From the NCBI GenBank assembly GCA_041645215.1, contig JBAZQK010000008.1:1744-65743 (forward strand): 64,000 nt of DNA, written 5' to 3'. A model generated the notes under the pieces. It made no database searches and was not told the origin of the DNA. It worked only from the letters and a program-made list of their open reading frames with translations. The position numbers were made by a program, and so were the translations under genes. Positions 5,231-52,156 of this stretch are shown one piece after another (position 1 is the first letter of the stretch; each line of letters begins with the position of its first letter). The DNA is from Patescibacteria group bacterium (GTDB taxonomy: Bacteria; Patescibacteriota; Patescibacteriia; Veblenbacterales; UBA10138).

Positions 5231-6115
5231 GTGACAACTATGGAATTACTTTTAAGTGCCTCAATTATTGCCGCCTTTATCGCCGGCGTGGCCGCCCTCT
5301 TCGCGCCGTGTTGCATTACCGTACTTTTGCCGTCGTACTTTGCTTCCATTTTCCGCGAAAAGCGCAAGGTATTCGTGATGACTTTTATTTTCTTTTTGGG
5401 AATTCTCACGGTCTTTCTACCGATTGGATTAGGGGCAGCGGCTCTCGGCAAATTCTTCAGCCAATATCATAATGCGGTGTTTGGCATCGGCGGTATTTTC
5501 CTCACTGTATTAGGAATGATTATTCTTATCGGCAAGCATTTTTCGTTGCCATTTCAAGTACATCCGACGCTTAAAAAACACAGTGCGGCTTCGGTATTTA
5601 CGCTCGGCATATTTTCAGGAATCGCTACTACTTGCTGCGCGCCGGTACTTGCGGGCGTATTGGCCCTCGCAGCACTTCCCGGATCGGTATTTTGGGGTGG
5701 TATCTACACCTTAAGTTATGTTTTTGGAATGGTCGCGCCCCTCTTTCTGATTTCGCTTTTCCTTGATAAAGTCAATTTTGGACAAAAGCTCCAACAAATC
5801 TTCAATAGGCCGGTCCGATATCGATTAGTCGGCAAGGGAATAAGTATTACTGTTTCCGAAGCAGTGTCGGGCATCACTTTTCTTGCCATGGGCGTTTTGA
5901 TTCTTTATCTTGCGCTTACCAATCGACTCTTTATGCAAGCTGGAGGATATCAGATAAACATCAATATTTACCTCACAAAGGTTTTGCAATCAATAAGCGG
6001 CGTCGCGCAAGCGACTCCCGAATATGTATGGGCGCTTTTATTAATCATAATCATTGGCGGAATTGTCTGGCGCGTCGTTCGCCAATTAAATAAAGAAAAA
6101 TATGAACCCCGTTAG
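5231..6115 (+). CDS. DsbD_2/CcdA-like polytopic membrane protein with paired Cys motifs
   Basis: 294 aa, 8+ TM; LFAPCCITVLLPSY and TCCAPVLAGV motifs in TM segments; the last codons and stop (YEPR*) are supplied by the flanking TIR element. Confidence 0.5.
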   Translation: MTTMELLLSASIIAAFIAGVAALFAPCCITVLLPSYFASIFREKRKVFVMTFIFFLGILTVFLPIGLGAAALGKFFSQYHNAVFGIGGIFLTVLGMIILIGKHFSLPFQVHPTLKKHSAASVFTLGIFSGIATTCCAPVLAGVLALAALPGSVFWGGIYTLSYVFGMVAPLFLISLFLDKVNFGQKLQQIFNRPVRYRLVGKGISITVSEAVSGITFLAMGVLILYLALTNRLFMQAGGYQININIYLTKVLQSISGVAQATPEYVWALLLIIIIGGIVWRVVRQLNKEKYEPR

Positions 6116-6244
6116 AAGTCCTTGGCAGAAAAATTTTATTAAAATTTTTCTGCGTTAGACAAACGGGATATTCATAACATAACAATGGGACTGTCTGAAA
6201 TTGATTATTTTGATCATATAAAGACAGACTTCTAACGGGGTGAA
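6103..6244. mobile_element. CCCCGTTAGAA-TIR element copy a (long form, GTC subtype)
   Basis: Perfect 14-bp TIR CCCCGTTAGAAGTC (6107-6120) / GACTTCTAACGGGG (6227-6240), 4-bp direct repeats TGAA at 6103-6106 and 6241-6244; internal 13-bp-stem hairpin GCAGAAAAATTTT-ATT-AAAATTTTTCTGC. Confidence 0.75.
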
Positions 6245-6890
6245 TAAAAAAATAAACGTTTCTACAATTGTTATCGCAATAGTAATTATTGCCGCCATAG
6301 GTCTTTTGATTTGGGGCGGCAGCCAGAATAAAACCAGCGCGCCGGCGGTGGATCAGCATGGGATGCCAATTGCCGCCAATACTTCGGTGGCGCCGCTTAA
6401 TGAACTGGTCAATAAATCGGCGCCGGATTTCGCGTTAGCTGACAAAGATGGCAAAATATATTCATTGAATGAATTACGGGGCAAAAACATTGTCCTCTTC
6501 TTTAACGAAGGATTAATGTGCTATCCTGCATGCTGGAACCAAATCGTTTCGCTCTCGCAAGACGAGCGCTTCAAAAATGACGACACCGTAATTCTCTCGG
6601 TTGTGGTTGACTCCAAAGAAGATTGGCAGCGCGCGGTTAACAAGATGCCCGAACTTGTTCAAGCGGCGGTAGTTTTTGATAACAACGCGTCTGTCTCAAA
6701 AAAGTTTGGCGTTCTTGCAACCCCGTCTTCTATGCACCCCGGTTCGCTTCCCGGTCATACCTATGTCTTGATTGATAAAGAAGGAATAATTAGATATGTT
6801 TTTGACGATCCGAATATGGGAATCCGCAACGATCAGTTAGTTGCAGAAATTTCGAAATTATCCCCGAGTAGTACTGGAAATACACCATAA
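6240..6890 (+). CDS. Thioredoxin-fold (redoxin/TlpA-like) protein with signal anchor and atypical CxxxC motif
   Basis: 216 aa; N-terminal TM; GKNIVLFFNEGLMCYPACW redoxin-like active-site region; candidate GTG start formed by the TIR/direct-repeat junction. Confidence 0.55.
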   Translation: MNKKINVSTIVIAIVIIAAIGLLIWGGSQNKTSAPAVDQHGMPIAANTSVAPLNELVNKSAPDFALADKDGKIYSLNELRGKNIVLFFNEGLMCYPACWNQIVSLSQDERFKNDDTVILSVVVDSKEDWQRAVNKMPELVQAAVVFDNNASVSKKFGVLATPSSMHPGSLPGHTYVLIDKEGIIRYVFDDPNMGIRNDQLVAEISKLSPSSTGNTP

Positions 6891-6937
6891 GGCCGATCAA
6901 TGCTAATTAATCAAAAGTAATCAGATTAACAATCAAT

Positions 6938-7111
6938 ATGAAATTATCAAAAGTGTTGCACGTTATTTCTGTTATCGCGGGGCTTGTTGGGGTTGCTATG
7001 TCGGCCTTCGCTGTTCTTATCTGGCCTGCTGATGTCGTGTGGTTTGGGCTCACGAGGGACATTGCGACTATGCATCACATGATGCTTGAAAATCGCGGAG
7101 AGATTATTTAA
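6938..7111 (+). CDS. Small 2-TM membrane protein (57 aa; paralog of 4364..4585)
   Basis: Not in the ORF track (<60 aa); translation MKLSKVLHVISVIAGLVGV...MHHMMLENRGEII parallels 4364..4585. Confidence 0.45.
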   Translation: MKLSKVLHVISVIAGLVGVAMSAFAVLIWPADVVWFGLTRDIATMHHMMLENRGEII

Positions 7112-7129
7112 TCAATTAATTCAAAGTAT

Positions 7130-7450
7130 ATGCACGACCATAACAACCAGAAAAACTCTTCCCTGATGTGGATGATGCTCATCGGCCTATTGCTTTTGGT
7201 TGTTCTGCTTTTCACGGGAGGCAAGTTGTTGGCCGGCGGATATCTCTGGCCGGTTCTTATTGGCGCCTTTGTCATCGCGCACCTCTGGATGATGTTCAAA
7301 GGACATAAAGGACACGGCGGGCACAGCGATGCTAATAGGGCAGAGAAATCTACCCTGCCGGTTCCGCTAAGCACGGCGCCGGCAGATGCAACTTTAGCAA
7401 AACAACCCGAGGCCAGGGGCGAACATAAGCACGGCGGGTGCTGTCACTAG
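7130..7450 (+). CDS. DUF2933-like small membrane protein, paralog of 4891..5211
   Basis: 106 aa; about 95% nucleotide identity to 4891..5211 (same length, HGGCCH tail). Confidence 0.55.
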   Translation: MHDHNNQKNSSLMWMMLIGLLLLVVLLFTGGKLLAGGYLWPVLIGAFVIAHLWMMFKGHKGHGGHSDANRAEKSTLPVPLSTAPADATLAKQPEARGEHKHGGCCH

Positions 7451-7459
7451 TATTTCACC

Positions 7460-15983: not shown

Positions 15984-16056
15984 ACTGTAAGCTGAATTAA
16001 ATAATAACAAAAATTTAAAACCAGGGAGTACAATACACTTCTTGGTTTTAAATTAT

Positions 16057-16224
16057 TAGGACTTACGCGCTTGCCGCTTTAGGGGCGGGCGCAGCCCGAC
16101 CCCTCAAGCGGCTTTGGCCAATTTCTTCGTTAAAACCTCTGCTTTTCGCTCACCGTAGTTTTACTACGGCTTGCTCAAATGCTCGGTTTTGCCTCGAACT
16201 TGGCTCAAACGCGTAAGTCCTAAT
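16057..16224. repeat. Long-range 14-bp perfect inverted repeat TTAGGACTTACGCG/CGCGTAAGTCCTAA enclosing ~140 bp of GC-rich structured sequence
   Basis: Read directly; internal hairpin CCGTAGTTTTACTACGG. Confidence 0.5.
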
Positions 16225-16419
16225 TATATTAGACCCGTTGCTTAATGAGTACTTTGGCTAAGGTTGGCCATAATTTCTAAAAGGCCTTAATAAGCAACAC
16301 ATCTATTATGTAATCGCATTTTTAATTATCCACAGGCTGGACTTGACCGTTATTTTTATTTGTGTTAACGTGTTAACACGTTGATACAAGATAAATAAGT
16401 CTTAATTTTACTGATATTT

Positions 16420-16710
16420 ATGAAAGCTGATAAAAAATGGGATAGCCCGGAGGCGGAGGAGCTTTATGGCGCTATTCTTAAGCTTAAAACCGCGGGCGAG
16501 TGTAAGCGTTTTTTTAGGGATTTGTGCACTCTATCTGAAATTGAGGCAATGATAGATCGTTTTCAGGTTGCCAAAATGGTAAAAAACAACATTCCGTATC
16601 GAGAAATTAGCGCCAAAACCGGCTCAAGTACTGCCACCGTCACCCGTGTGGCTCATTGGCTTCATCATGGGATGGGTGGCTATAAGCTGGCGCTTGAACG
16701 TATGAAATAA
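16420..16710 (+). CDS. YerC/YecD (TrpR-related) family DNA-binding protein
   Basis: 96 aa; EAMIDRFQVAKMV...REISAKTGSSTATVTRV HTH; family typical size. Confidence 0.7.
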   Translation: MKADKKWDSPEAEELYGAILKLKTAGECKRFFRDLCTLSEIEAMIDRFQVAKMVKNNIPYREISAKTGSSTATVTRVAHWLHHGMGGYKLALERMK

Positions 16711-16737
16711 GATCAATCAAGCACTTAAGTTTTAGTT

Positions 16738-16763
16738 ACCCGTTCAGATGAACGGGTTTTTTA
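16738..16763 (+). terminator. Rho-independent terminator after the YerC-like gene
   Basis: ACCCGTTCA-GA-TGAACGGGT followed by TTTTTTATTTT. Confidence 0.65.
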
Positions 16764-16786
16764 TTTTATCAATTAACTAATTATTA

Positions 16787-16874
16787 TGAACCCCGTTAGA
16801 AATTCAGTATTCAAACTGGATTTCTGCTGGGGCTAAAAAATGACTATGCTGACAAAAATTTCTAACGGGGTGAA
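16787..16874. mobile_element. CCCCGTTAGAA-TIR element copy b (short form, ATT subtype)
   Basis: TIR CCCCGTTAGAAATT (16791-16804)/AATTTCTAACGGGG (16857-16870); direct repeats TGAA 16787-16790 and 16871-16874. Confidence 0.75.
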
Positions 16875-18159
16875 CAAGATTCAACCAACAATTCTTAAGG
16901 GGACTCGCGATTTTCTTCCGCCGGAGATGATGCGGCGTAATGTTGTAATGGAAATTATCCGCAAGACGTTCGAACAGTTCGGCTATTCTCCAATTGAGAC
17001 ACCCATTATTTGTCCGGCTGAAACCATTTTAGGCAAATACGGCGAAGAAGGAGATCGGCTCACTTATTCATTCAAAGATCGCGGCGGGCGACTCATTGCT
17101 TTGCCGTATGATTTGACCGTGCCGTTCGCGCGGTTTGTCGCGGCTAATTATCAGGATTTACCTATACCATTCAAACGCTATCAAATTCAGCGTGTTTGGC
17201 GAGCAGAAAAGCCGCAAAAAGGCCGCTTACGCGAATTTTATCAATGCGATGTTGATATCATCGGATCAAAAAGCCTGGTCTGTGAAGCAGAAATTGTCAA
17301 AGTGATTACTGTAGTATTTGAGAAGTTAGGTGTTCCAAATATTACGATCAAAGCAAATTCAAGGCGATTGCTGAATGCGATATTGCAGTCTTATGGTGTC
17401 AATCAAAGCGAGATAATATCCACCATTCGCGTTATAGATAAAATCACCAAAGTTGGCGAGGAAAGTGTTATTTTAGAATTGCAAAAGATGGAAATAAACA
17501 ATGCCGAGAAGATAATCGAAACACTTAAATCAGAAGACACGAACAAAAACACGCTCAAAAAACTCTCCGAATATGACCTCTCCGAGTTGGAAGAATTTTT
17601 GTCATATTGCGGCGAGCTTGGTGTGCCAGAAAAGAATCTCCAGATTGATCCAACACTGGCAAGAGGACTTGATTATTATACCGGCCTCACCTTTGAAGTA
17701 GTTAGTGAAGATGCGGACTTCGGCTCAATCTGTGCCGGCGGCCGTTACGATAATCTCTGCGGTTTTTTTTCTGACAAGGATTTTTCCGGAGTTGGCGTTG
17801 CTTTCGGCTTTGAACGCATTATGTTGTTGCTCGAACAACTGAAACTCTTTCGCAGTAGCAATGCGCCTTCACAGGTTCTGGTAACCATTTTTGATGACAA
17901 TTCAATCAAGAATGCATTGCAAACGTATCGCCAGCTTATTGAGGCTAATGTTGCGGCGGAAATTTACTTTGAGCCGGAAAAATTATCAAAACAATTCAAA
18001 TTTGCGGACAAAAAACAAATTCCTTTTGTCCTGATTCAAGGACCGGAAGAACGAGAAAAAGGCGAAATTACAATCAAACGCCTGCAAAACGGCAAACAAA
18101 AAACTATACCTGTAAATCAACTTGTTTCTTATTTATCCAACTATTATGAACCCCGTTAG
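16840..18159 (+). CDS. hisZ: HisRS paralog; probable HisZ regulatory subunit, or a second HisRS
   Basis: Class II aaRS HisRS-like core (LKGTRDFLPPE, WRAEKPQKGRLREFYQCDVD) plus a C-terminal anticodon-binding-like domain. Lies immediately upstream of a short-form hisG. The listed ATG 16840 lies inside the TIR element; the homology-consistent start is GTG 16871 at the element junction. The stop is supplied by element c. Confidence 0.6.
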   Translation: MTMLTKISNGVNKIQPTILKGTRDFLPPEMMRRNVVMEIIRKTFEQFGYSPIETPIICPAETILGKYGEEGDRLTYSFKDRGGRLIALPYDLTVPFARFVAANYQDLPIPFKRYQIQRVWRAEKPQKGRLREFYQCDVDIIGSKSLVCEAEIVKVITVVFEKLGVPNITIKANSRRLLNAILQSYGVNQSEIISTIRVIDKITKVGEESVILELQKMEINNAEKIIETLKSEDTNKNTLKKLSEYDLSELEEFLSYCGELGVPEKNLQIDPTLARGLDYYTGLTFEVVSEDADFGSICAGGRYDNLCGFFSDKDFSGVGVAFGFERIMLLLEQLKLFRSSNAPSQVLVTIFDDNSIKNALQTYRQLIEANVAAEIYFEPEKLSKQFKFADKKQIPFVLIQGPEEREKGEITIKRLQNGKQKTIPVNQLVSYLSNYYEPR

Positions 18160-18229
18160 AAATTCAATACGGATAACACGTTTTAAGATCTATGAAACTA
18201 CAAAAATATACAATTTCTAACGGGGTAAA
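18147..18229. mobile_element. CCCCGTTAGAA-TIR element copy c (short form, ATT subtype)
   Basis: TIR 18151-18164 / 18212-18225; flanks TGAA / TAAA (one mismatch). Confidence 0.7.
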
Positions 18230-18836
18230 AATCGCAATCCAAAAAGAAGGGCGGCTCAAGATACCGAGTCTTGAGTTTCTTGAATCTTTGGGCCTTCAAT
18301 TTTCCAAAGACAATGACAGAACGCTTGTTGTTCCTTGTAAAAACGCCGATGTCGAAATTCTATATGTGCGGCACAGCGATATACCGCAGTATGTTCAAAG
18401 CGGCGCGGCTGATTTTGCTGTTGTTGGTGGCAATGTGCTGTATGAGAATAATTTTAAGGTAAGAGAAGTTAAAAAACTGGATTTTGGCAGGTGCCGTTTG
18501 GTGATTGCCATACCCATTATTTCTCCTATTCAAAAAACAAAAGAACTTGAGGGGGAGCGAGTAGCAACGTCTTACCCAAATAGTCTGCGAAAGTTTTTAC
18601 AAAAGCAAAAAATCAACGCGGCCATCATTGAAATAAAAGGCGCGGTTGAAGTTGCGCCGGTTTTGGGGCTCGCGGACGCGATTTGTGATCTTACGCAAAC
18701 CGGAAATACGCTAAAAGAAAACGCCCTGAAGCCCATAGCCACATTATTTAATTCCACGGCCGTATTTATCGAGTCGCCATTTGAAAGCAAACAAAAGAAT
18801 GAATTTATAAACAAGTTTCTAACTGCAACACTATGA
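18192..18836 (+). CDS. hisG: ATP phosphoribosyltransferase, short form (HisG-S)
   Basis: 214 aa; KIAIQKEGRLK...; lacks the C-terminal regulatory domain; start codon ATG lies inside element c. Confidence 0.85.
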   Translation: MKLQKYTISNGVKIAIQKEGRLKIPSLEFLESLGLQFSKDNDRTLVVPCKNADVEILYVRHSDIPQYVQSGAADFAVVGGNVLYENNFKVREVKKLDFGRCRLVIAIPIISPIQKTKELEGERVATSYPNSLRKFLQKQKINAAIIEIKGAVEVAPVLGLADAICDLTQTGNTLKENALKPIATLFNSTAVFIESPFESKQKNEFINKFLTATL

Positions 18837-20116
18837 AAAAATATTATTTTAAACAACTTAATGATGCCGCATTAAAAAACCTTTGTAAAAGAAAGGCCAT
18901 TCGTTTTGATGACGTTTTGCCTGTTGTCGAAAATGTCTTGCGTGAAGTCAAAATGAGAGGTGACGAGGCTATCCGTGAGTTCACAGCAAAATTCGATAAT
19001 GCAAGTCTTTCTTCTTTGAAAGTCAACAAAAAAGAAATTGAGCGCGCTTGTGAACGCATACCAAAAAATATCCGGAGTGCTTTTAGAAAAGCAACGCGCA
19101 ATATAGAGAAATTTCACAAAGCGCAGATGGTCCGGCGAAAGGAGGTAAAAACAATGTCTGGGATTACCTGTTTTGCAGAGGCGAGAGCGATTGAAAAAGT
19201 TGGGCTATACATTCCCGGCGGGACAGCGCCATTGCCTTCAACGGTATTGATGCTTGCAATTCCAGCAAAACTTGCTGGTTGCGAGGAAATTGTGCTTATT
19301 ACTCCGCCAACAAAAGACGGAGATATAGCTGATGTTATTTTATTCGCCGCCCAGCTCTGTGGAATTACACAAATTTTCAAAATTGGCGGCGCGCAGGCAA
19401 TTGCGGCGTTAGCGTTTGGGACGGAGAGCGTGCCGAAAGTTTACAAGATTTTTGGCCCCGGCAATCAATATGTGACTGCGGCAAAAATGCTGGTTTCTAT
19501 TAACCCCGATGGCGCGGCTATTGATATGCCAGCCGGACCGACGGAGGTGCTGGTTGTTGCCGACGAAAAAGCGCGGGCTGATTTTGTGGCAAGCGATCTT
19601 TTATCACAAGCAGAGCATGGTATTGACTCACAAGCGATTCTTGTTGCTACTTCTGATAAAAAAGCAAACGAAGTCCTAGTCGAGGTGAGACAGCAATTGC
19701 AGTCTTTGCCACGAAAAGAGATTGCTCAAAAATCGCTCGACAATAGTTTTGTTATCGTTGTTGATTCTGTGGATAAGGCAATTGCTTTCTCTAACATGTA
19801 CGCACCTGAACACCTTATCTTAAATGTTGGAAATGCCACAAGGTATGTTCCAGAAATTATAAACGCTGGTTCTGTATTTTTAGGTCCGTACTCTTGTGAG
19901 TCAGCCGGTGATTACGCCAGCGGCACCAATCACTCGTTGCCGACGTATGGCTATGCCCGCGTATCAGGTGGTGTTTTTGTGAGCAGTTTTCAAAAGCAAG
20001 TAACCTTTCAGAAAATTACCAAACAGGGAGCGAAAAATTTAGGGCCCATTGTATCAACCTTGGCTTCCCAAGAATCGCTGGAGGGCCACAAAAGGGCGAT
20101 GCAGTTACGCTATTAA
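18833..20116 (+). CDS. hisD: Histidinol dehydrogenase
   Basis: 427 aa; ...SQAEHG..., ...HSLPTYGYAR... conserved HisD motifs. Confidence 0.9.
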   Translation: MKKYYFKQLNDAALKNLCKRKAIRFDDVLPVVENVLREVKMRGDEAIREFTAKFDNASLSSLKVNKKEIERACERIPKNIRSAFRKATRNIEKFHKAQMVRRKEVKTMSGITCFAEARAIEKVGLYIPGGTAPLPSTVLMLAIPAKLAGCEEIVLITPPTKDGDIADVILFAAQLCGITQIFKIGGAQAIAALAFGTESVPKVYKIFGPGNQYVTAAKMLVSINPDGAAIDMPAGPTEVLVVADEKARADFVASDLLSQAEHGIDSQAILVATSDKKANEVLVEVRQQLQSLPRKEIAQKSLDNSFVIVVDSVDKAIAFSNMYAPEHLILNVGNATRYVPEIINAGSVFLGPYSCESAGDYASGTNHSLPTYGYARVSGGVFVSSFQKQVTFQKITKQGAKNLGPIVSTLASQESLEGHKRAMQLRY

Positions 20117-20130
20117 TAATAACTATTCTT

Positions 20131-21696
20131 ATGAAAAATTTAGCATTAGAAAGAATTCAAAAAATGAAATCATATAAACCGCCACTCGACGGCAGGTCGG
20201 AATATGGCGGCATGCTTTTGGATTTCAATGAGCGAACGAAACCACCGCCAAGCAACGTTGTCCGCACACTGGAAAAATTTGTAAAGGGCCAAAAACTACA
20301 GGTATACCCGGAGTATTTTGATTTGGAGAGGAGAATTGCGAAATATGCTGACGTCAAGATCAACCAAGTAATGATTACCAACGGATCCGATCAAGGTATT
20401 GATATTATTTTCCGAACATTCACTGAAAGGGGCGACAAAGTAATTATTCCCAGCCCCAGCTTTGCTATGTTTTATCAGTGTGCTCAAATTGTTGGCAATG
20501 AAATTGTTTGTCCGCTTTACAAAAAGGATGATCTTGCGTTTCCACTTGAGGAAGTATTAAGTTTGATTGACGAGCAAACAAAGCTGATTGTGGTATGCAA
20601 CCCCAATAACCCGACTGGTACCGGTGTGTCCGTTGCTGATATTGAAAAAATAGCGCGGAAGGCAAAGAAAGCGGTCGTATACGTTGATGAGGCCTATTTT
20701 GAATTCTCAAAAATTACCACTACATCTCTCATCAGGAAATATCCAAACATTATTATAACGAGAACATTTTCAAAAGCTTTCGGCCTCGCTTCTCTTAGAA
20801 TTGGATATGTTATCGCGAGAGCAGAATACATCGCTGAAATGCTGAAAATTCGCGGACCCTATGACGTAAATATGGCCGCGTACTATGCGGCATGCGCGGC
20901 ACTTGGAGACAGAAAAAGTATGGAGCGCTATGTTGACGACGTAATGACGAAAGCAAAACCACTGGTGGAAAAATTCTTTTCTCAAAATGCCGTACCTTAT
21001 TTTTTGTCCCGGTCAAACTTTATTTTATTTCGTCCCGATAATCCTGAAAACGCGATGAAGTTACTTGGTAAGGGCGGTGTCCTGGTGCGACCGCAAAATA
21101 AGCAGAATATTGAAAACACCTTGCGCGTGAGTATCGGCACGATAAAGCAAATGGAGAAGTTTATTGGGATTTATAAAAGCGTTGTGTCTAAAAATTCAAA
21201 GCGTAAGTACGCCTTTCTTGATCGTGACGGTACTCTCCTAAACGAACCTCAAGATACTTATCAGATTGACAGCTTAAAAAAACTGAAAATTCTTGATGGC
21301 GTCATTGCCGGATTACAAGAATTGAAAAAAAGAGGCTACGCGCTGATTATGATTTCCAATCAAGACGGTTTAGGAACTTCCTCATTCCCGCAAAAGGGTT
21401 TTGCGGCTCCGCAAGAAAAAATGCTGAAAATCTTTCGCAGTAATGGAATAACTTTTGACCAAATATTTATTTGTCCGCACTTGCCGCAGGAGTCATGTAA
21501 TTGCCGCAAGCCAAAAACAAGATTGGTGGATGAATTTTTGCAGAACGCAAACATTGATAAAAAATTATCTTTCGTTTGCGGCGATAGAAACAGTGATCGG
21601 AAATTCGCGAAGAATATCGGCATTAAGTTTATTCCGATGGAAACCAACGGCAATTTTTGCAAGGCGATTAAGTCATTTTTAACCAAAACTATATGA
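20131..21696 (+). CDS. hisC: Fusion: histidinol-phosphate aminotransferase (HisC) plus histidinol-phosphatase HAD domain (HisB-N/HisN-like)
   Basis: 521 aa; N-terminal PLP aminotransferase (TFSKAFGLASLRIGY); C-terminal FLDRDGTLL...ISNQDGLGT...CPHLPQESCNCRKPK matching the E. coli HisB N-terminal phosphatase domain. Confidence 0.85.
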   Translation: MKNLALERIQKMKSYKPPLDGRSEYGGMLLDFNERTKPPPSNVVRTLEKFVKGQKLQVYPEYFDLERRIAKYADVKINQVMITNGSDQGIDIIFRTFTERGDKVIIPSPSFAMFYQCAQIVGNEIVCPLYKKDDLAFPLEEVLSLIDEQTKLIVVCNPNNPTGTGVSVADIEKIARKAKKAVVYVDEAYFEFSKITTTSLIRKYPNIIITRTFSKAFGLASLRIGYVIARAEYIAEMLKIRGPYDVNMAAYYAACAALGDRKSMERYVDDVMTKAKPLVEKFFSQNAVPYFLSRSNFILFRPDNPENAMKLLGKGGVLVRPQNKQNIENTLRVSIGTIKQMEKFIGIYKSVVSKNSKRKYAFLDRDGTLLNEPQDTYQIDSLKKLKILDGVIAGLQELKKRGYALIMISNQDGLGTSSFPQKGFAAPQEKMLKIFRSNGITFDQIFICPHLPQESCNCRKPKTRLVDEFLQNANIDKKLSFVCGDRNSDRKFAKNIGIKFIPMETNGNFCKAIKSFLTKTI

Positions 21697-22283
21697 GAGC
21701 GAGAACTTCAACAATCAGGCGTAAAACAAGGGAAACCGACATTGCCGTTACTGTAAAACTTGATGGTACGGGCAAATATCAAGTGGACACCGGCATCGGT
21801 TTTCTGAATCACATGCTGGAACTTTTTTCCAGGCATTCGTTAATAGATCTCACCGTAAAAGCTAAAGGCGATCTGAAAGTAGATGAACATCACACAGTTG
21901 AGGATATTGGAATTTGTTTGGGCGCAGCGCTGCGCCAAAGCCTTGGCGACAAAAAAGGCATTGAGCGGTATGGTTTTTTGTTGCCTATGGATGAAGCTCT
22001 GGCTGAAGCAGCAATTGATTTAGGCGGAAGGGCTTGTCTTGTTTGGAACGCTTCTTTTAAGCGGGAAAAAATAGGAGATATGCCGACCGAGCTTTTCGAG
22101 GATTTTTTTAAGGCGGTAGCTGATAATCTCCAAGCAAATATCCACATCAATGTAAAATACGGCAGGAACGAACACCACATTGCGGAAAGCATATTTAAAG
22201 CGCTTGCAAGAGCCTTGAGGAATGCTGTAAGCCGCGATAAGCGAGCCAAAGATTTATTACCATCTACCAAAGGAAAATTATGA
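21693..22283 (+). CDS. hisB: Imidazoleglycerol-phosphate dehydratase
   Basis: 196 aa; TRETDI...GIGFLNHML...HH..E IGPD motifs. Confidence 0.9.
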   Translation: MRARTSTIRRKTRETDIAVTVKLDGTGKYQVDTGIGFLNHMLELFSRHSLIDLTVKAKGDLKVDEHHTVEDIGICLGAALRQSLGDKKGIERYGFLLPMDEALAEAAIDLGGRACLVWNASFKREKIGDMPTELFEDFFKAVADNLQANIHINVKYGRNEHHIAESIFKALARALRNAVSRDKRAKDLLPSTKGKL

Positions 22284-23005
22284 TTGCCATTATTGACTAC
22301 AAGGCAGGCAATATTGCGTCTGTAAAAAACGCTCTGGAACGACTTGGGCGAGCGTGTGTTGTTACATCCGAGCCGAAAGAAATTTTATCAGCTGACGGCG
22401 TAATATTCCCGGGTCAAGGCCGGGCTGGCGCCGCAATGTCGAACTTAAGAAAAACCGGCATTGATAAGATTATTCCTCAAATTACAAAACCGTTTTTGGG
22501 TATTTGTCTGGGGATGCAACTACTTGGCTCAACTTCCGCAGAAGATAAGACAGAATGCCTTGAGATTTTTCAGGGTGTGTGTCGCAAATTCCCGCCGACA
22601 TTAAAAACCCCGCATCTTGGCTGGAATAAAGTTGAATTGACGGGAGAGTCATCCTTAACCACTGGTATCCAAAACGGGGCATACTTTTATTTTGTGCACT
22701 CATATTACGTTGACCCCGTTAGAAGTCCTCGGCGTAAAAATTGCTGTGCAATTTTTACGCGGTATCAATCAGAGCTCACTACTGAAAGTTGTCGTGATAA
22801 TGACACAATGTCATTATCACGACCAAAGCCGACTTCTAACGGGGTTGATGTTGCGGAAGCTCAAATTGTCGGAAAAACAAGTTATGGTTTTGATTTTCCA
22901 TCGATTATGCAAAAAGGTAATTTTTTTGCAGTCCAGTTTCACCCTGAAAAATCAGGTGAGCAAGGTTTACGATTACTCAATAATTTTTGTGAACTATGTA
23001 TATAA
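22280..23005 (+). CDS. hisH: Imidazole glycerol phosphate synthase glutaminase subunit HisH carrying an in-frame 45-codon TIR-element insertion
   Basis: 241 aa; ...GICLGMQLL...HLGWNKV...YFVHSYYVD [45-aa insert [11 protein letters not shown]...KPTSNGV] DVAEAQ...[14 protein letters not shown]; removal of 22714..22848 restores E. coli-like spacing. Confidence 0.85.
   Translation: [241 protein letters not shown]
22710..22848. mobile_element. CCCCGTTAGAA-TIR element copy d (long form, GTC subtype) inserted in-frame inside hisH
   Basis: Perfect TIR 22714-22727/22831-22844; direct repeats TTGA 22710-13 and 22845-48; element (131 bp) + one repeat = 135 nt. Internal hairpins GCGTAAAAATTGC-TGT-GCAATTTTTACGC and a 15-bp stem GTCGTGATAATGACA-CAA-TGTCATTATCACGAC. 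Confidence 0.85.
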
Positions 23006-24471
23006 TACCAGCAATTGACATAATGAACGGCAAATGTGTGCGTTTAGCGCAAGGAAATTTTGCGAAGTCAACCATCTACAACAGCAATCCGGTTGAGGTT
23101 GCGAAAGATTTTGCAAAGCAAGGAGCGCAATCCTTGCATATTGTTGATTTGGACGGCGCAAAATCGGGCTTTCCAGTAAACTTGGAAACAGTCCTTGCCA
23201 TCGTTAAATCGGTCAACATTCCGCTTCAAGTTGGCGGCGGCATACGCTTGTACGATCAGGCGCAAAAATATCTTGAAAATGGCATTGAGAAAATTATTTT
23301 AAGCACTGTTGCCATAGAAGACCCAAAATTGCTGGAGCGTCTATTGGAGGAATTTGGAAGTTATAGAGTTACAGTTTCAGTGGATATTGATGATGGACAA
23401 GTCGCTACTCGCGGCTGGATGAAAAAGAACACAAAAACTGTTCCGGGCCTTGTTAGTTTTCTCAAAAAAGTGGGTATCACATCGGTCATTGTAACCGACA
23501 TTTCCAAAGACGGCTTACTTAAAGGGCCAAATTTTGATTTGGCAAAAGAATTTATCAACGAAGGATTCAAAACTGTTGTGGCTGGCGGCGTATCATCTTT
23601 GGGAGATTTAGAGAAGTTGAATAAGCTAGGTGCATTTGGCGCAATAATTGGGAAAGCAATGTATGAGGGAAAAGTTGATCTGCGAGAAGCGCAGGAAAGA
23701 GTCGCTTATAAAAACAATCTTGCCAAAAGAATCATTCCTTGCCTTGATGTAAAAAATGGGCGGGTAGTAAAGGGCATACGCTTTAGCGATTTGTGCGATG
23801 CTGGTGATCCGGTTGAACTGGGAAAACGATACTGCGAGTTAGGTGCGGACGAGCTTATTTTTCTTGATATAGCCGCCACACTGGAAAATCGCAAAACACT
23901 TTGCGAGTTGGTTTCAAAGATTGCCAAAGAAATAAACATACCTTTTACCGTTGGTGGCGGCATTTCAACGTTTGAGGATATAAAAAATCTCCTTAATGCC
24001 GGGGCCGACAAGGTCTCCATTGGGTCCGCGGCGGTGAAAAATCCTAATTTTGTCAAGGAGGCGGCGGAGTATTTTGGTTCTCAATGCATCGTTATTTCTG
24101 TTGACGCGAAAAGGCAAAATGAGGGCTGGAAAATTTATATAAAGGGCGGGTCAGAAAAAACAGATATTGACGCTATAGAATTTTCCAAACAAATGGAAAA
24201 ACTCGGCGCCGGGGAACTTCTGGTGAATAGTTTAGACCGCGACGGAACCAGAGAAGGATTTGATCTGGAGTTGTTAGAAAGTATTACAGACAGTGTGAAT
24301 ATTCCGGTGATTGCCTCAAGTGGTGCCGGTTCAATGCAAGATTTTCTGGCCGTTTTTCAAAAAACAAACGTTGATGCCGCTCTTGGAGCAAGCATATTCC
24401 ACTATCAAGAAGTAAACATAATGGAACTCAAGAAATTTTTATCCAATAATAATTTACCCATACGCGTATGA
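22996..24471 (+). CDS. hisA-hisF: Fused HisA (ProFAR isomerase) - HisF (IGP synthase cyclase subunit)
   Basis: 491 aa; N-terminal IIPAIDIMNGKCVRL...(HisA), C-terminal RIIPCLDVKNGRVVKG...(HisF); TIM-barrel phosphate-binding GG motifs in both halves. Confidence 0.85.
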   Translation: MYIIPAIDIMNGKCVRLAQGNFAKSTIYNSNPVEVAKDFAKQGAQSLHIVDLDGAKSGFPVNLETVLAIVKSVNIPLQVGGGIRLYDQAQKYLENGIEKIILSTVAIEDPKLLERLLEEFGSYRVTVSVDIDDGQVATRGWMKKNTKTVPGLVSFLKKVGITSVIVTDISKDGLLKGPNFDLAKEFINEGFKTVVAGGVSSLGDLEKLNKLGAFGAIIGKAMYEGKVDLREAQERVAYKNNLAKRIIPCLDVKNGRVVKGIRFSDLCDAGDPVELGKRYCELGADELIFLDIAATLENRKTLCELVSKIAKEINIPFTVGGGISTFEDIKNLLNAGADKVSIGSAAVKNPNFVKEAAEYFGSQCIVISVDAKRQNEGWKIYIKGGSEKTDIDAIEFSKQMEKLGAGELLVNSLDRDGTREGFDLELLESITDSVNIPVIASSGAGSMQDFLAVFQKTNVDAALGASIFHYQEVNIMELKKFLSNNNLPIRV

Positions 24472-32900: not shown

Positions 32901-33060
32901 ATCCTAAAACTTAAATCCCAACAATTTAAACTCAAAACGCAAAAGTAAAAGCTCAAAACCACTAAAAGCCTCGCTTTTACTTTGTCATTGGGATTTTGGA
33001 GATTGGGTATTATTTAGGATTTAGAAATTAGAAATTAGGATTTGTATTCGTAATTCTTAC
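32901..33060. repeat. AT-rich imperfect palindromic element downstream of topA, sharing the core TTTTGGAGATTGG-TATT-ATTTAGGATTT with the element at 37054..37170
   Basis: Read directly; ~35 bp shared core with 37095-37140. Confidence 0.45.
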
Positions 33061-33311
33061 CCAGTATAACTATTTTGTTATAGCTCGCTTGTAAAATAAA
33101 ATTTATAAACCAGGTAAGTAGCCTATGCCAGCGTTATCTCTTACTAGTTATTTAATTTAAGCTCGCTAAATTTTATTTAACAAAGTTGTTATACTGGGCT
33201 TAATTCATAATTCTATTTAGCCGTGGAACACTTTATTCCACGCTCTTTTATTTTCCCTGCTATTAGCCATAAGCTATTGGCTAATAGCTATTTTATGTTC
33301 CACGAGCCTTG

Positions 33312-33341: not shown

Positions 33342-33725
33342 AGTTATTTAATGGAAAAGTCGTAGTTGACACAGGGGATGTTCTTTAACAATTAAGCCAG
33401 ATCCACCCCTCTTAATAATAAGAGGGGCTGGGGGAGTTATATTCTGCTTATTCATAACCCCCTTTAATCCCCCTTAGCTTAAGGGGGAGATAACGCTTTA
33501 AATATGCGTCTGGCACAATCTAACATTTCTCCTTACCAACTCGGGAGGGGAGAAGGGTTAATGAGCTAGGATATTGACTGGTACCATCAAATTGGCCACT
33601 GGTCTTTTCCAGACTAATTAATCTTAAAACGTCAGTCTTTTTTAGACATAAGGCGTTTTCAACTTCTCCTCCGGATTAGTAAGGAGAAATAAATCCAAAT
33701 TACTAAGACAAAAAACAAAAACTAA

Positions 33726-37053: not shown

Positions 37054-37170
37054 TAAAAATCCTAAATCCTAATATCTAAATCTTAAATAATACCCAAAAA
37101 TAAATCCCAATATTTTGGAGATTGGAATTTATTTAGAATTTAGGACTTAAGTTTTAGGATTTGAATTTTA
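37054..37170. repeat. AT-rich imperfect palindromic element (AAATCCTAAAT arms) after rel
   Basis: AAAATCCTAAATCCTAATATCTAAATCTTAAATAAT ... ATTTATTTAGAATTTAGGACTTAAGTTTTAGGATTTGAATTT. Confidence 0.45.
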
Positions 37171-37216
37171 CCCCGTTAGAAGCAGAATGCCCCGTGTGAG
37201 CTTCTAACGGGGTTTA
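37167..37216. mobile_element. CCCCGTTAGAA-TIR element copy f (minimal form, AGC subtype) between convergent rel and parB
   Basis: TIR CCCCGTTAGAAGC 37171-37183 / GCTTCTAACGGGG 37200-37212; 16-nt loop; direct repeats TTTA 37167-70 and 37213-16; the parB stop codon lies in the right repeat. Confidence 0.7.
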
Positions 37217-38104
37217 CTTTTTACCTGATATCTTACCAACCAGTTCCGCCAAATCGCCGCTGGAATAAAATTCAATCTCAATCTTGCCTTTTTGGTTGCC
37301 GATAATTCTAACCTTGGTCCCCAAAGTTCTTTGCAAATCAGCTTCCAGCTGGCGGAACTGCCAATTGACACCCGGCGCGCCCGCTCGCGCCCGGCCCTTA
37401 ATTTGGGCGGCCTTGGCCTCGGCCAGCCGCACCGGCAAACCCTCGGCCGTAATCAAACGGAAAAATTTTTCCTGCTCTTGGGGTGTTTCCAAACTCAATA
37501 TTACTTTGGCATGACCAAAGGTTAGTTTGCCGTCCCACAAAGCTTGCTTAATACTCTCGGGCAATTCTAACAAACGCAGAGTATTGGCTATTTGTGGCCG
37601 TGACTTGCCGACCTGTTTGGCAATTTGGTCCTGGGTTAAATTAAATTCATCGCGCAACCGGCGGTAGCCTTCGGCCTCTTCCAATGGGTTTAAATCCTGG
37701 CGCTGAATATTCTCCACCAAGGCAATCTCCAATTTTTGCTGTTCATCAAACGGGCGCACTATTACCGGCACGGTCGCCAAGCCGGCGGTTAGCGCCGCGC
37801 GCCAACGCCGTTCGCCTACGATTAAATCATAATTGCCGTCCGCCCGCTCACTTACCACCAACGGCTGTAAAATTCCATGTTCCTTAATGGAGGCCGCAAG
37901 CTCTACTAAACTGGCCTGGTCAAATTTATGGCGCGGCTGTTGGGGGTTGGCTTTTATCGCCTGGGGTGAAATCTGCCTGACGCCGCCATCAGCCACAATT
38001 TTAGTTTTGTCAGCCGCTGGCCCCGCACCCCAGTAATTATCCTTGGCTGGTTGGGACGGTATTAACGAACCCAAGCCCCGCCCGAGTTGAAAAGGTTTTA
38101 CCAT
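37214..38104 (-). CDS. parB: Chromosome partitioning protein ParB
   Basis: 296 aa; ParB box GERRWRAA, HTH, C-terminal dimerisation region. Confidence 0.85.
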   Translation of the reverse strand: MVKPFQLGRGLGSLIPSQPAKDNYWGAGPAADKTKIVADGGVRQISPQAIKANPQQPRHKFDQASLVELAASIKEHGILQPLVVSERADGNYDLIVGERRWRAALTAGLATVPVIVRPFDEQQKLEIALVENIQRQDLNPLEEAEGYRRLRDEFNLTQDQIAKQVGKSRPQIANTLRLLELPESIKQALWDGKLTFGHAKVILSLETPQEQEKFFRLITAEGLPVRLAEAKAAQIKGRARAGAPGVNWQFRQLEADLQRTLGTKVRIIGNQKGKIEIEFYSSGDLAELVGKISGKK

Positions 38105-38113: not shown

Positions 38114-38222
38114 TTTATCCCGTTACATTTTAAAAACCCCGCGGTCTTGCCACGGGGATACCGCAGCAAATTCAGATCATTTCCGCGGGGTCTAATACCC
38201 CGTGGAAATGTAACGGGATTTA
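38114..38222. mobile_element. Variant TIR element (TCCCGTTACATTT termini) at the parA-parB junction
   Basis: TIR 38118-38130 / 38206-38218 (13 bp perfect); direct repeats TTTA 38114-17 and 38219-22; two internal GC hairpins CCCCGCGG..CCACGGGG and CCGCGGGG..CCCCGTGG; the last 8 codons and stop of parA are encoded by the element. Confidence 0.65.
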
Positions 38223-48214: not shown

Positions 48215-48397
48215 ATAGAGATGGTTTCAAAACCCTTTTCGTGGCGTCCGTAAGGTGGATTGAACGAGACAAGGAAGATGAGCAAAATGCCCGGAAACGT
48301 AGCAGTAGCTACGATGAGGACATTTTGGAAAATCTGACGCAGTCGCAGTCAAAAAACAGAAATTGCAGCAGAAATAGGGTTTTGAAACCATCTCATA
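48215..48397. mobile_element. 177-bp MITE copy 1 with 19-bp perfect TIRs and 3-bp TSD ATA
   Basis: GAGATGGTTTCAAAACCCT (48218-48236) ... AGGGTTTTGAAACCATCTC (48376-48394); flanking ATA/ATA. Confidence 0.8.
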
Positions 48398-50342: not shown

Positions 50343-50362
50343 TCGGACGGTTAATTAAATTC

Positions 50363-50545
50363 AATGAGATGGTTTCAAAACCCTTTTCGTGGCGTCCGTA
50401 AGGTGGATTGAACGAGACCAGGAAGATGAGCAAAATACCCGGAAACGTAGCAGTAGCTACGATGAGGACATTTTGGGAAATCTGACGCAGTCGCAGTCAA
50501 AAAACAGAGATTGCAGCAGAAATAGGGTTTTGAAACCATCTCAAT
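50363..50545. mobile_element. 177-bp MITE copy 2 with 19-bp perfect TIRs and 3-bp TSD AAT
   Basis: 50366-50542, ~96% identical to copy 1; flanking AAT/AAT. Confidence 0.8.
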
Positions 50546-50914
50546 AAGTCTCATACTATTTTATCATACAGCAAACCGTCCGCTTTCGGTAATTTGGTTC
50601 CGTTCAGCCGGGCCTGGTAGGAAATTTAAAATTTACCTGCCCGCCATCGGCCTCTTGCAATCGATAATTATTATTTAGTGCTGTAGCTTTCTATTTAATA
50701 GCATCGTTTACTTTGTACAGGCTTAGGCAGGCGGGCCTGCCCGCCCCGTCATGGCTTCGCCAGATCTCGCAGAGCGATGACTTAGCAGGGCCCGCCGTTA
50801 GCCTTAGAAATATCACTATAACACTGAAACACTGGAACACTAGATCACTGGATCAAATTTGTTCAAGTGTTAAAGTGTTCCTGTGATTAAGTGTTTCTTG
50901 ATTCTTTATTAAAG

Positions 50915-52036
50915 CTACGGCAGTTGGGAATTTTTTAGACCAGTCTGCTTTTGATTTTGGTCATTAGTTGAGATTGATAAAATGTCAGCGGCCGCGGCTT
51001 TTAATTCCGAGTAATCGCCTTGGCGGGGGGTTAGTAAGTAAGCGCCATCCAGGCTAATTATTTGTTTTAGCAAGCCATCGGCGGTATCGTCTAACACCCG
51101 GTGTTGAATAGCGCCGGTGTCAACCTGGCGCAGGATGTGAGCCAAGCGAATAGCGTCGGCCGCGTCCAGGTTGGTGAGTACGCTGTTTTGGAGAGTTTGG
51201 TAAACTTTTAGCATTAGCCGCGGATTTAAGAAAGTGGCCGGTGACAGCAGTTTAGCTTTAATAGCTGATAAAATTATTTGTTGACGTTGGGCCCGGGCAA
51301 AGTCAGAATTTTGCTGGTTGTCGCCATGCCGTGAGCGGACGTATTCTAAAGCTTTAGTTCCGGACATAACTTGCCAACCAGCCGGGAAGGAAATTGTTCT
51401 GTAGCCATGGTCATCATTGGGAAAACTGTTATCGGTAAAGGCGTTTGGAACATTGACCGGTAGACCGCCTATTTGGTCCACAATTTTTACAAAACCGTCA
51501 AAGTCCAGTCGGACATAGTAGTGTATTTTTAAACCAAAAACCTCACCAATTACTTGGCTGGCCAAAACGGGCCCCTGGTTTAAGCTTTGTTGTTCACCTA
51601 GGGCGTTGGCGTAATTAACCCGTCTGGCGCCACCACCGGGAATTGGAACTACTAAATCACGAGGAATTGACATTAAACCAACTTGGGCAGTTTGCGGATT
51701 AAGACTGGCTAAAATAATAGTGTCGGTTAAATAAGGCCCGTCGTGGCCTGGTCCGCCCTGACCAAGCAAAAGAAAATTAATCCGGCCATCAGCTTCACCC
51801 TCAAGCATTTTGTCTTGCCCGCTGACCAGTTGTTTGACATTCTCCCATAATGAATGCTGGGGCCAGTTTAAAATAGTGGCTTGCACGTGAGGCTGTCGCG
51901 ACAGCCAAATTACTGTCAGGCTGACAACAATAAAAACGGTATACAAAAAAAACTTCCCCCGGTTGATTTTGCGAACAGCGGGGGACTGCTCACTTGCCGG
52001 AGTCGGCGGTAATGGTAGATTGTCTAGATTATCCAT
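50915..52036 (-). CDS. LytR-CpsA-Psr (LCP) family protein
   Basis: 373 aa; N-terminal TM; LCP core (ILLLGQGGPGHDG..DTIILASL, RHGDN..DFARAQRQQ). Confidence 0.8.
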   Translation of the reverse strand: MDNLDNLPLPPTPASEQSPAVRKINRGKFFLYTVFIVVSLTVIWLSRQPHVQATILNWPQHSLWENVKQLVSGQDKMLEGEADGRINFLLLGQGGPGHDGPYLTDTIILASLNPQTAQVGLMSIPRDLVVPIPGGGARRVNYANALGEQQSLNQGPVLASQVIGEVFGLKIHYYVRLDFDGFVKIVDQIGGLPVNVPNAFTDNSFPNDDHGYRTISFPAGWQVMSGTKALEYVRSRHGDNQQNSDFARAQRQQIILSAIKAKLLSPATFLNPRLMLKVYQTLQNSVLTNLDAADAIRLAHILRQVDTGAIQHRVLDDTADGLLKQIISLDGAYLLTPRQGDYSELKAAAADILSISTNDQNQKQTGLKNSQLP

Positions 52037-52047
52037 AAAGGGTTGCC

Positions 52048-52156
52048 TTTACCCCGTTAGAAGCAGGATGCCCCGCCGATTCGGCGGGGATGAATGCCCA
52101 ATTCTCAACAGCGAACACGGGGTTTAATGCCCCGTGTGAGCTTCTAACGGGGTTTA
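52048..52156. mobile_element. CCCCGTTAGAA-TIR element copy g (AGC subtype) upstream of the LCP gene
   Basis: TIR 52052-52064 / 52140-52152; direct repeats TTTA 52048-51 and 52153-56; interior shares ATGCCCCGTGTGA with copy f plus extra hairpins CCCCGCCG-ATTC-GGCGGGG and CACGGGG-TTTAAT-GCCCCGTG. Confidence 0.7.

Follow-up and report, generated by a model that had tools for sequence, protein, structure and literature searches.

Eight short inverted-repeat elements lie in a 64-kb stretch of DNA from a Patescibacteria group bacterium (contig JBAZQK010000008.1; this whole stretch of 64,000 nucleotides is called the window below), and we are largely confident that they are copies of a mobile superfamily of non-autonomous DNA transposons, i.e., MITEs (miniature inverted-repeat transposable elements). 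Sharp terminal inverted repeats (TIRs), 4-bp target-site duplications (TSDs), and empty orthologous sites in related genomes carry this interpretation. The family survives in compact genomes by in-frame residence in essential genes or by exact placement on start codons. It is new and has unusual properties, and our search of the literature by sequence string and by topic found no description of the element.

Eight copies with perfect ends in the window

The motif CCCGTTAGAA matches the window 15 times at up to 1 mismatch, compared with 4.2 ± 2.1 matches in shuffled sequence (0/100 shuffles reach 15). Its 14 exact matches form 7 inverted pairs CCCCGTTAGAA...TTCTAACGGGG that are 42–134 nt long, which together with one variant copy gives a total of eight elements in the window, all flanked by 4-bp repeats. 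Re-reading of the sequence placed all eight where a first-pass annotation, made from the letters alone, had located them (named below by their first position):

6103–6244, plus strand: long form, element at 6107–6240 (134 nt), TSD TGAA on both sides; at the overlap of the end of a DsbD_TM-like gene with the start of a redoxin gene
16787–16874, unstranded: short form, 80 nt plus TSD TGAA; on the start codon of a HisRS-like (hisS/hisZ) gene
18147–18229, unstranded: short form, 75 nt, flanks TGAA/TAAA; at the hisS-like/hisG junction
22710–22848, plus strand: long-form-like, 131 nt plus TSD TTGA (135 nt); in frame within hisH (22280–23005)
24469–24538, unstranded: short form, 62 nt plus TSD TGAA (66 nt); on the ATGA stop/start overlap of hisAF and hisIE
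37167–37216, unstranded: shortest copy, 42 nt, TSD TTTA; directly 3' of parB
38114–38222, unstranded: variant TIR TCCCGTTACATTT...AAATGTAACGGGA, TSD TTTA; between parA and parB, overlapping the 3' end of parA
52048–52156, unstranded: copy with GC hairpins, 101 nt, TSD TTTA; 12 nt upstream of the start of a LytR-family gene (50915–52036, minus strand)

The perfect TIRs of 13–14 bp that the annotation had described were seen in 8/8 copies, and so were its three subtypes of termini, ...GAAGTC (6103 and 22710), ...GAAATT or ...GAAAT (16787, 18147, and 24469), and ...GAAGC (37167 and 52048), as well as its flanking 4-mers (TGAA four times, with 18147 as TGAA/TAAA, TTGA once, and TTTA three times). 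The internal hairpins that it had noticed are real as well, with folding z-scores of -4.5 to -10.2 against shuffles for all eight copies. The variant copy 38114–38222 shares an interior of two GC hairpins with 52048, and its type of terminus was also seen at locus L236. Copies of the family range from 29 to 163 nt, none of them with a transposase open reading frame (ORF), as expected of MITEs.

Filled and empty sites in related genomes

Four of the eight copies sit in the histidine operon, as had been claimed. The mobility of the element was assessed in orthologous his operons, which we obtained via homologues of the HisAF fusion protein. Seven loci were compared for the presence or absence of copies: L002, L003, L006, and L248–L251. 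HisAF identity to the window is 88% for L002, 81% for L003–L005, 77% for L006, 82% for L248, 79% for L249, 78% for L250, and 81% for L251. Three sites are filled in some of these genomes and empty in others, and where a site is empty the 4-mer is present just once:

hisS start: empty in L003, TTATGAACAAAATT; filled in the window, TTATGAA-element-TGAACAAGATT
hisH: empty in L006 and L248–L251, TA(C/T)GTTGA(C/T)G; filled in the window and L003, TACGTTGA-element-TTGATG
hisF/hisI junction: empty in L003, L248, L250, and L251, ATGAAAAAA; filled in the window and L002, TGAA-element-TGAA

At the hisF/hisI junction, L006 and L249 have other starts, likewise without an element. The empty hisS site of L003 reads TTATGAACAAAATTCAACC with a single TGAA, and the hisS-like/hisG junction of this locus is also free of the element. 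A neighbor-joining tree of HisAF places L003 beside L251, L248, and L250, which are empty, and the window beside L002. Filled hisH sites are thus separated by empty lineages, and the inserts of the window (131 nt) and L003 (98 nt) have unrelated interiors, which argues that the hisH TTGA is either a hot spot that would have been struck independently in two lineages or a site from which the element would have been excised precisely in the intervening ones. L006 has its own copy at another place, the 3' end of a gene with a DivIC domain (PF04977), where TTGA is duplicated, and nested copies were seen in other genomes (L188 and L229).

The first-pass annotation had named its own alternative to mobile DNA, an immobile and conserved family of host regulatory hairpins resembling REP-type terminators or attenuators, which it would have preferred if relatives had shown the same sequences at all sites. 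Location at gene boundaries, stable hairpins, and the failure to find a transposase would all agree with such a family. However, we consider it extremely improbable: six relatives have clean empty sites, one site has taken independent insertions, the 4-bp duplications are of many kinds in sequence, some copies lie within ORFs of essential genes, others are nested, and the family is spread over 13 phylum labels with unrelated interiors. Because relatives do have empty sites, the MITE reading stands.

Effects on the genes that each copy touches

The annotation had placed copies exactly at gene boundaries. They do lie near gene ends and starts, but they overlap ORFs and do not merely sit between genes. 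At 6103, the upstream ORF (5231–6115) terminates as ...YEPR* at the TAG of the left TIR, and the redoxin ORF (6240–6890) opens with a GTG to which the element contributes its final G and the TSD its TG; with the insertion undone in a reconstruction, the site reads ATGAATAAAAAA and encodes MNKKINV. The HisRS-like ORF (16840–18159) has a new ATG within copy 16787 and runs out through its right TIR (..KISNGVNKIQ..), while at its other end it stops as ..YYEPR* in the left TIR of copy 18147, within which the hisG ORF (18192–18836) finds its ATG start (MKLQKYTISNGV-KIAIQKEGRL). Removal of the element and one repeat in silico yields the natural starts MNKIQPTILKG, MKIAIQKEGRL, MNKLNIQQL, and MNKKINV.

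Two copies in the operon are read through in frame. The hisH copy adds 45 codons (DPVR...SNGV), giving a HisH of 241 aa in the window compared with 195–196 aa in L006 and L248–L251, where TTGA is single. Residues 145–196 of this protein match only 6 residues of the solved HisH structure 4gud_A, and downstream of the insert the protein still has its catalytic VQFHPEKS motif. Similarly, copy 24469 adds 22 residues to HisIE, which has 225 aa (MNPVRNNIKNIINPVRNKISNGV-NKLNIQQL) in the window and L002 versus 203–206 aa in L003, L006, and L249–L251; these short relatives begin MKKFNVKQL... at a junction without element, and L248, which is cut by the contig end, also has an MKKFD start.

Outside of the his operon, parB (37214–38104, minus strand) has its stop codon in the right TSD of copy 37167, where TTA reads TAA on the minus strand. 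The interior of this copy, GCAGAATGCCCCGTGTGAGC, matches both ends of 52052–52152, and by sequence the copy resembles a 52048-type element shortened by deletion. ParA ends ..ENKSRYISTGY* within copy 38114 versus ..ENKN* at the reconstructed empty site. Copy 52048 clusters with 37171–37212 and with L197 (Parcubacteria) and has the recurring boxes ATGCCCCG / CGGGGCAT.

The his operon itself (16420–25145) is complete and includes a hisA-hisF fusion (491 aa) and a hisC-histidinol-phosphatase fusion (521 aa). At its head lie the HisRS-like gene and, upstream, a TrpR-like ORF, and a second HisRS paralogue is found at 53538–54896. A TrpR-like domain is fused to HisG in L006. The same operon is present on an ENA metagenome contig, and the nearest homologues of the HisAF fusion are labelled Patescibacteria.

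One terminus under 13 phylum labels

A scan of genome collections with the 14-mer of a single TIR was swamped by chance singletons, and we therefore replaced it by a TIR-pair pattern with a gap of 20–80 nt. This pattern found one viral contig and, in a collection with one genome per species, at least 120 loci, and the same TIR pair appeared under 13 phylum labels. These labels are those of the record titles of metagenome-assembled genomes (MAGs), and the counts given here, like all statistics on 137 copies below, refer to the at least 120 genome loci listed:

Patescibacteria (many classes): 42
Planctomycetota: 26
Desulfobacterota / Thermodesulfobacteriota: 20, including the closed MAG ORM2a
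Omnitrophota: 11
Nitrospirota: 4
Pseudomonadota: 3
Clostridia: 2
Bdellovibrionales, KSB1, Riflebacteria, Cloacimonadota, Elusimicrobia, and Edwardsbacteria: one locus each
Unclassified: 6

The GC content of the host loci ranges from 31% to 61%. Among the 137 copies with exact TIRs (136 distinct), 111 have interiors without detectable similarity to any other, and the rest of the picture is one of 9 clusters of similar interiors, none of which crosses a phylum label. The 11-nt terminus is therefore common across phyla, while subfamilies are lineage-specific. In 183,232 genomes surveyed in 2024, 97.4% of MITE clusters stayed within one genus, with an intergenic share of around 90% (PMC11602168), which makes the cross-phylum pattern of this TIR unusual: MITEs are regarded as genus-restricted and mostly intergenic, but a single 11-nt terminus persists in this element in mostly uncultivated bacteria with 13 phylum labels.

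At L132 (2166–5034), L144, L161, and L196, which belong to MAG DX4.bin27 and a relative, near-identical 94-nt copies share similar flanks (..GCATATAAA / TTTATATGC..). In L132, these copies form an inverted pair around the gene of a 686-aa secreted protein and may be part of a larger repeat or an inversion.

Target site and duplication

Two samples bear on the target. The pattern used for the genome sample forced A and T beside the TIRs, whereas a second, unforced sample came from a metagenome scan with the left end of the long form, CCCCGTTAGAAGTCCTYGGC, which hit at least 119 contigs, mostly from groundwater. Flanking 4-mers are identical in 99/137 copies of the genome sample and in 75/105 of the long form (TGAA/TGAA 44, TATG/TATG 10, TAAA/TAAA 6, CATA/CATA 3, and 12 other identical pairs). 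Extra copies at the genome-sample loci have TATG/TATG and CGAG/CGAG flanks, from which it follows that the element begins at CCCC and that the duplication comprises 4 bp. The site logo of the 99 copies with perfect TSD is a weak palindrome (G/A, T-W-W-A, C/T). The target is (R)T-W-W-A(Y), and for the long form it is the start-codon context TATGAA. The first-pass annotation had instead seen a stop-codon-like word in the target, but the common context TATGAA is a start codon followed by AA, often within an ATGA stop/start overlap.

The unforced sample of the long form contains 13 different identical 4-mers, including TATG, CGTG, and CAAG that are not of the T..A type. Such variety within one subfamily argues for a duplication by staggered cuts and counts against the fixed cleavage tetranucleotide of IS200/IS605-type elements. 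This bears on a reading that we regard as quite improbable, in which the family would be a single-strand transposon of HUH/Y1 enzymes (an IS200/IS605-derived PATE or a REPIN mobilised by RAYT), with the hairpins as recognition structures and the apparent TSD as a target tetranucleotide on one side and, at the right end, a cleavage site of identical sequence. The left end is attached 3' of TGAA in one orientation (44 copies versus 1 with TTCA in the element's own frame), which would fit this reading, as would hairpins maintained by covariation, the lack of a TIR-bounded DDE transposase in 1.83 Mb of loci, and a weak RAYT-like ORF in locus L233. Yet this ORF scores 59.9 bits, below the cut-off of 80, and is not adjacent to a copy. 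A cleavage site recognised by guide sequences should stay constant within a subfamily, but the identical pairs include TGAA, TATG, TAAA, CATA, TGGA, TGAG, and CAAG as well as CGTG, TTTA, TTCA, CTTA, and TTGA. Moreover, the inverted repeats are perfect and lie strictly at the termini, whereas IS200/IS605 hairpins are subterminal, and the GTAG head of REPs is absent.

Short forms are compatible with translation

The left TIR shuts one reading frame (TAG) and the right TIR one (TAA), and both shut the same frame if the length of the element plus 4 is a multiple of 3. Distinct copies of the genome sample are strongly biased toward this in-frame class (79 versus 28 and 29 in the others; chi-square p=7e-9). 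In the PVR..SNGV frame, 70/79 copies of in-frame length are free of stops, compared with 54.5 ± 3.4 (maximum 65) when interiors are shuffled. The bias is a feature of the short form, as the long form lacks it (35/51/20). In 32/137 copies, an ORF that extends for at least 40 codons to either side reappears once the element is taken out, and 23 of these 32 are in phase and read through. Host proteins with in-frame copies include, by NCBIfam identity, SecA, CarB, IF-2, GlyRS, HypE, ProB, and FolD from different phyla. The element may be a source of protein insertions.

Since 23 of the 32 intragenic copies are in phase and stop-free, no mechanism that skips the element during expression is needed. 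Translational bypassing, of which the “byps” of yeast mitochondria and T4 gene 60 are examples, or excision from the RNA could in principle use the direct repeats as take-off and landing sites around a stable hairpin, and the stops that follow the left repeat in two frames would suit such a mechanism. We nevertheless give it hardly any credence: read-through predicts both the bias for multiples of 3 and the depletion of stops, but bypass predicts neither; the remaining intragenic copies are mostly on marginal ORFs; and copies on start codons have no nascent peptide that could drive bypassing.

The persistence of the family in compact genomes would instead come from ends that are compatible with translation, each TIR closing only one frame per strand, and from a TSD that would regenerate the signals split by insertion. 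Three classes can be told apart among the surviving copies. The first comprises stop-free in-frame inserts that add an NPVR...SNGV peptide, as in HisH of the window. Inserts of the second class lie exactly on start codons or ATGA overlaps, where the left copy of the TSD preserves the upstream stop and the original ATG and the right junction remakes a start, namely GTG with a TGAA duplication and ATG with TATG. Intergenic copies form the third.

At L222 (1230–1500) and L226 (1560–3720), copies are found at the 5' end of type IV pilin-like genes with a TTTA target within GGG TTT ACx, which stands for G-F-T in the prepilin motif. The leader in L222, MITKISKRG|FTLIEL, is encoded by a degenerate right TIR, and in L226, several tandem pilin-like genes each have a variant copy (CCCCGTTAGAGATA).

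The long form at gene starts

Among the contigs listed from the metagenome scan, we found 106 complete copies of the long form (86 distinct) whose lengths cluster at 128–134 nt. An ORF of at least 80 codons begins at the right junction of 69/106 copies and at the left junction of 5. The downstream genes are unrelated housekeeping genes, e.g., clpP, valS, leuS, rplK, ssb, dnaN, dnaB, RNase J, ftsZ, groES, and secA. Start contexts in the window and in L256–L374 are AT-rich, typically ..TTATG or ..CTATG, and several copies directly follow tRNA 3' ends or -10-like boxes.

The architecture of the long form was determined from an alignment of 57 copies, i.e., the copy at 6107–6240 of the window and 56 metagenome copies alignable with it. 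Their TIR stem is invariant. The two long copies of the window had been said to share an internal hairpin kept by selection; they do have in common a hairpin of 13 bp, placed alike in both and with 4 compensated positions, and selection is borne out by a covariation score of 0.186 in the 57 copies versus 0.090 in shuffles (0/500 reach the observed score) and 0.025–0.055 in slid controls. In hairpin 1, 8/12 pairs show changes on both sides with 98% pairing, and hairpin 2 covaries too. A conserved unpaired center, ..ATAACGGGGTATAA.., is a third AACGGGG box, a candidate internal decoy of the right TIR, and in the 5' part alone the left TIR pairs with this box 3 in 47/47 folded copies. By computed energies, 7.8 kcal/mol is needed to free the 11-nt gene-proximal TIR in the observed orientation versus 15.7 in the reversed one, and the reverse cost exceeds the forward cost in 57/57 copies (p=5e-11).

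In the transcript, the internal AACGGGG box would pair with the left TIR, and this pairing would leave the right TIR and the start codon single-stranded. We offer this decoy mechanism of start-codon exposure, modelled from folding energies, as a tentative hypothesis that is less likely than not to hold. Accessibility of the start codon would matter because the lineage hardly uses Shine-Dalgarno sequences: a core motif lies upstream of 5/48 ORFs in the window, compared with 6% of random positions, and upstream of 3/35 target starts. If the decoy operates, selection for an accessible start codon would let only one orientation survive at gene starts. How a start codon is recognised where a lineage lacks Shine-Dalgarno sequences is a question that the element brings up.

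It is also possible, though we think it rather unlikely, that the long form is an exapted mobile element kept by its hosts as a portable gene-start module, either a structured 5' leader or an outward promoter, that supplies or regulates the expression of the gene it precedes; this would be compatible with a MITE origin. The strict position and orientation of the long form speak for such a module, and so do the recurrence of ssb, pilC-like, dksA-like, RNase J, and RNase H genes behind it in several organisms, its covarying hairpins and conserved unpaired boxes (ATAACGGGGTATAA and TATATAA), the folding asymmetry between its two orientations, and an excess of G:U (48) over A:C (31) combinations on the sense strand of the gene. 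But the downstream genes have no common function, no Rfam family matches the element, and selection against harmful insertions alone yields the same pattern of position and orientation. On the sense strand of the window copy, neither a promoter of the sigma-70 type nor a terminator was found, a -35-like hexamer is missing from the consensus, and a leader ORF from the original ATG stops within the element in 36/37 copies.

Several specific mechanisms were tried and set aside. Coupling of stop and start at GTGA through the element fails on this premature stop of the leader ORF, and a folded element that bridges an upstream Shine-Dalgarno motif to the junction start fails on the rarity of such motifs given above. 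An outward sigma-70 promoter or a terminator found no support in a consensus scan of the window copy's sense strand. With Rfam, only 4 tRNAs of the window reach the gathering score, and a search of 6050–6300 by E-value gave hairpin matches at chance level.

Contigs end within the long form at L258, L266, L295, L305, L309, L323, L345, L346, L353, L365, L372, and L374; given so many such ends, the repeat evidently breaks short-read assemblies. For MAG annotation, this matters, and so do the genes that look extended, split, or wrongly started because of the element.

Taken as a whole, these patterns could belong to an ancient pan-bacterial family that selection has made invisible to gene expression, with identical 11-nt ends recognised by a widely conserved putative enzyme, with tolerated peptides in essential proteins of many phyla, and, in Patescibacteria, with an orientation-specific, self-unmasking leader of around 130 nt whose internal decoy of the right end would hold the start codon open and which has spread to the start codons of a large share of the housekeeping genes. 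We put this forward as a speculative synthesis that we would not yet bet on. If true, it would be a new way for selfish DNA and Shine-Dalgarno-independent translation initiation to co-adapt.

The mobilising enzyme and points against the interpretation

A transposase supplied in trans would recognise the TIR and probably also the repeated CCCCG/CGGGG boxes, and it would make 4-bp staggered cuts. By analogy, the 4-bp T..A duplication, which is near the TTAA of piggyBac, and the CCC...GGG tips would hint at a piggyBac/IS1380-type enzyme, but this is a guess that is more probably wrong than right. IS1380 is the prokaryotic relative that has been used as an outgroup of piggyBac (PMC10813416). The element has CCCC tips and 4-bp T..A duplications, while the IS1380 examples have CC tips and a 5-bp TSD. 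Whatever the enzyme, the conserved terminus is a specific probe for the missing transposase.

Several results weigh against the interpretation of the family as MITEs or against parts of our account. First, no transposase was found among 30 ORFs of the window scanned with Pfam, and neither an autonomous element nor a candidate transposase in 1.83 Mb around more than 250 copies. This agrees with the non-autonomy claimed in the first-pass annotation, but the autonomous relative with the same TIRs that it had proposed to look for did not turn up in searches for solo ends, for TIR pairs at a distance of 0.4–5 kb, and for ORFs between inverted repeats of any kind. All candidates were host genes between separate copies, truncated copies (L291 beside a tRNA gene, L321), or degenerate copies, and the proteins recurrent across loci were DnaX, HemC, PorB, and VorB besides the one sub-threshold RAYT-like ORF. 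To our knowledge, a cognate autonomous element is also absent for several accepted bacterial MITE families, and we likewise know of no mobilising enzyme for Rickettsia palindromic elements (RPEs) and Correia elements. Second, ISEcp1, IS1678, and a Lactiplantibacillus element of the IS1380 type have CCTGAAT.. or CCTAGAT.. ends with 5-bp duplications; no TIR likeness beyond CC was seen in these 3 sampled members, the ends of a fourth, ISKpn23-like one being unresolved. A local IS1380 hidden Markov model found no IS1380-like ORF in the 1.83 Mb of locus fragments. Third, around 28% of exact-TIR copies have unlike flanking 4-mers with all 22 TIR bases intact, for which simple neutral decay after insertion fails to account. 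Fourth, some contigs may be mis-binned because phylum labels come from the titles of MAG records; the closed genome ORM2a (CP113000.1) does carry a copy. Finally, the 69:5 orientation bias is not expected of a DDE element with symmetric TIRs. The putative account of this bias by selection and a decoy derives from thermodynamic folding only, in which the full TIR stem is still favored by about 8 kcal/mol at equilibrium.

Comparison with known repeat families

The first-pass annotation had likened the family to Correia elements (NEMIS) of Neisseria. The two share long and short forms, TIRs, a structured transcript, a location near genes with co-transcription, and no known transposase. In Correia elements, the TIRs measure 26 bp, the duplication is TA, and an IHF site is present; they are confined to one genus (Neisseria). 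In contrast, the TSD of our element has 4 bp and is not TA, its conserved TIR core comprises 11 bp of different sequence, and it is frequent in ORFs; because of the different duplication, the likeness holds for the architecture but goes no further.

REP/REPIN-RAYT systems are similar as short palindromic repeats in and between operons, with inverted doublets that form hairpins and with high copy number. However, REPs have no target duplication, a GTAG head, an extragenic location, and a genus-specific distribution, none of which fits an element with variable 4-bp duplications, no GTAG head, and copies inside ORFs. PATEs of IS200/IS605 insert 3' of a fixed tetra- or pentanucleotide without duplication and have subterminal hairpins and no TIR; orientation bias is the only likeness. 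Putative mobile promoters and intragenic MITEs (ERIC, Nezha, and Chunjie) are likewise homologous short elements upstream of or inside non-homologous genes whose expression they may affect, but these are lineage-restricted, whereas the TIR of our element is found across phyla and most of its long copies touch a start codon in one direction. Integron attC sites have a RYYYAAC 5' end and a GTTRRRY 3' end and lie 3' of promoterless cassettes in arrays. We rejected this candidate: the order is reversed in the element (GTTAGAA 5', TTCTAAC 3'), and its copies lie in a conserved his operon with empty sites in relatives.

The closest parallel in behavior is the RPE, a small palindromic repeat that is found in frame in unrelated housekeeping genes, encodes a family-specific peptide, and has no known transposase (PMC10969869). 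Our element, too, lies in frame in genes such as hisH, so that the RPE phenomenon recurs here, but in an element that is not the same and is far more widespread. No sequence relationship to RPEs was seen, although no direct alignment to RPE consensus sequences was made. RPEs occur only in Rickettsia and close relatives, measure around 100–150 bp, and have no defined TIR and TSD, whereas the element described here has sharp 11-bp TIRs, 4-bp TSDs, lengths of 29–163 nt, and hosts under 13 phylum labels, and a large fraction of its copies lies on start codons. By this description it is set apart from RPEs, and selfish DNA in protein-coding genes extends from Rickettsia to Patescibacteria, Omnitrophota, Planctomycetota, Desulfobacterota, and others.

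Other repeats in the window

Inverted-repeat elements of several kinds seem to abound in the genome. Unrelated to the family above, a second MITE-like one has two nearly identical copies of around 177 bp with 22-nt TIRs (GAGATGGTTTCAAAACCCTTTT) and 3-bp flanking repeats (ATA, AAT). These copies and further long intergenic palindromes lie at the following positions:

48218–48394 and 50366–50542: copies of the second MITE-like family
16044–16235: palindrome
25357–25388: perfect palindrome (16+16)
25392–25515: palindrome
33060–33198: palindrome
33525–33690: palindrome

The window also contains a diversity-generating retroelement (55409–57899) with a reverse transcriptase ORF at 56865–57899 (Pfam RVT_1, 1.3e-21). 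Its template repeat (56363–56455) and its variable repeat (55933–56025, in the 3' end of ORF 55409–56047) are 93 nt long and 85% identical, with all mismatches at template adenines. Finally, diverged direct repeats of 46–60 nt at 60461–63502, which are 63–74% identical and around 2.2–2.5 kb apart, are probably repeated domains in neighboring large proteins.

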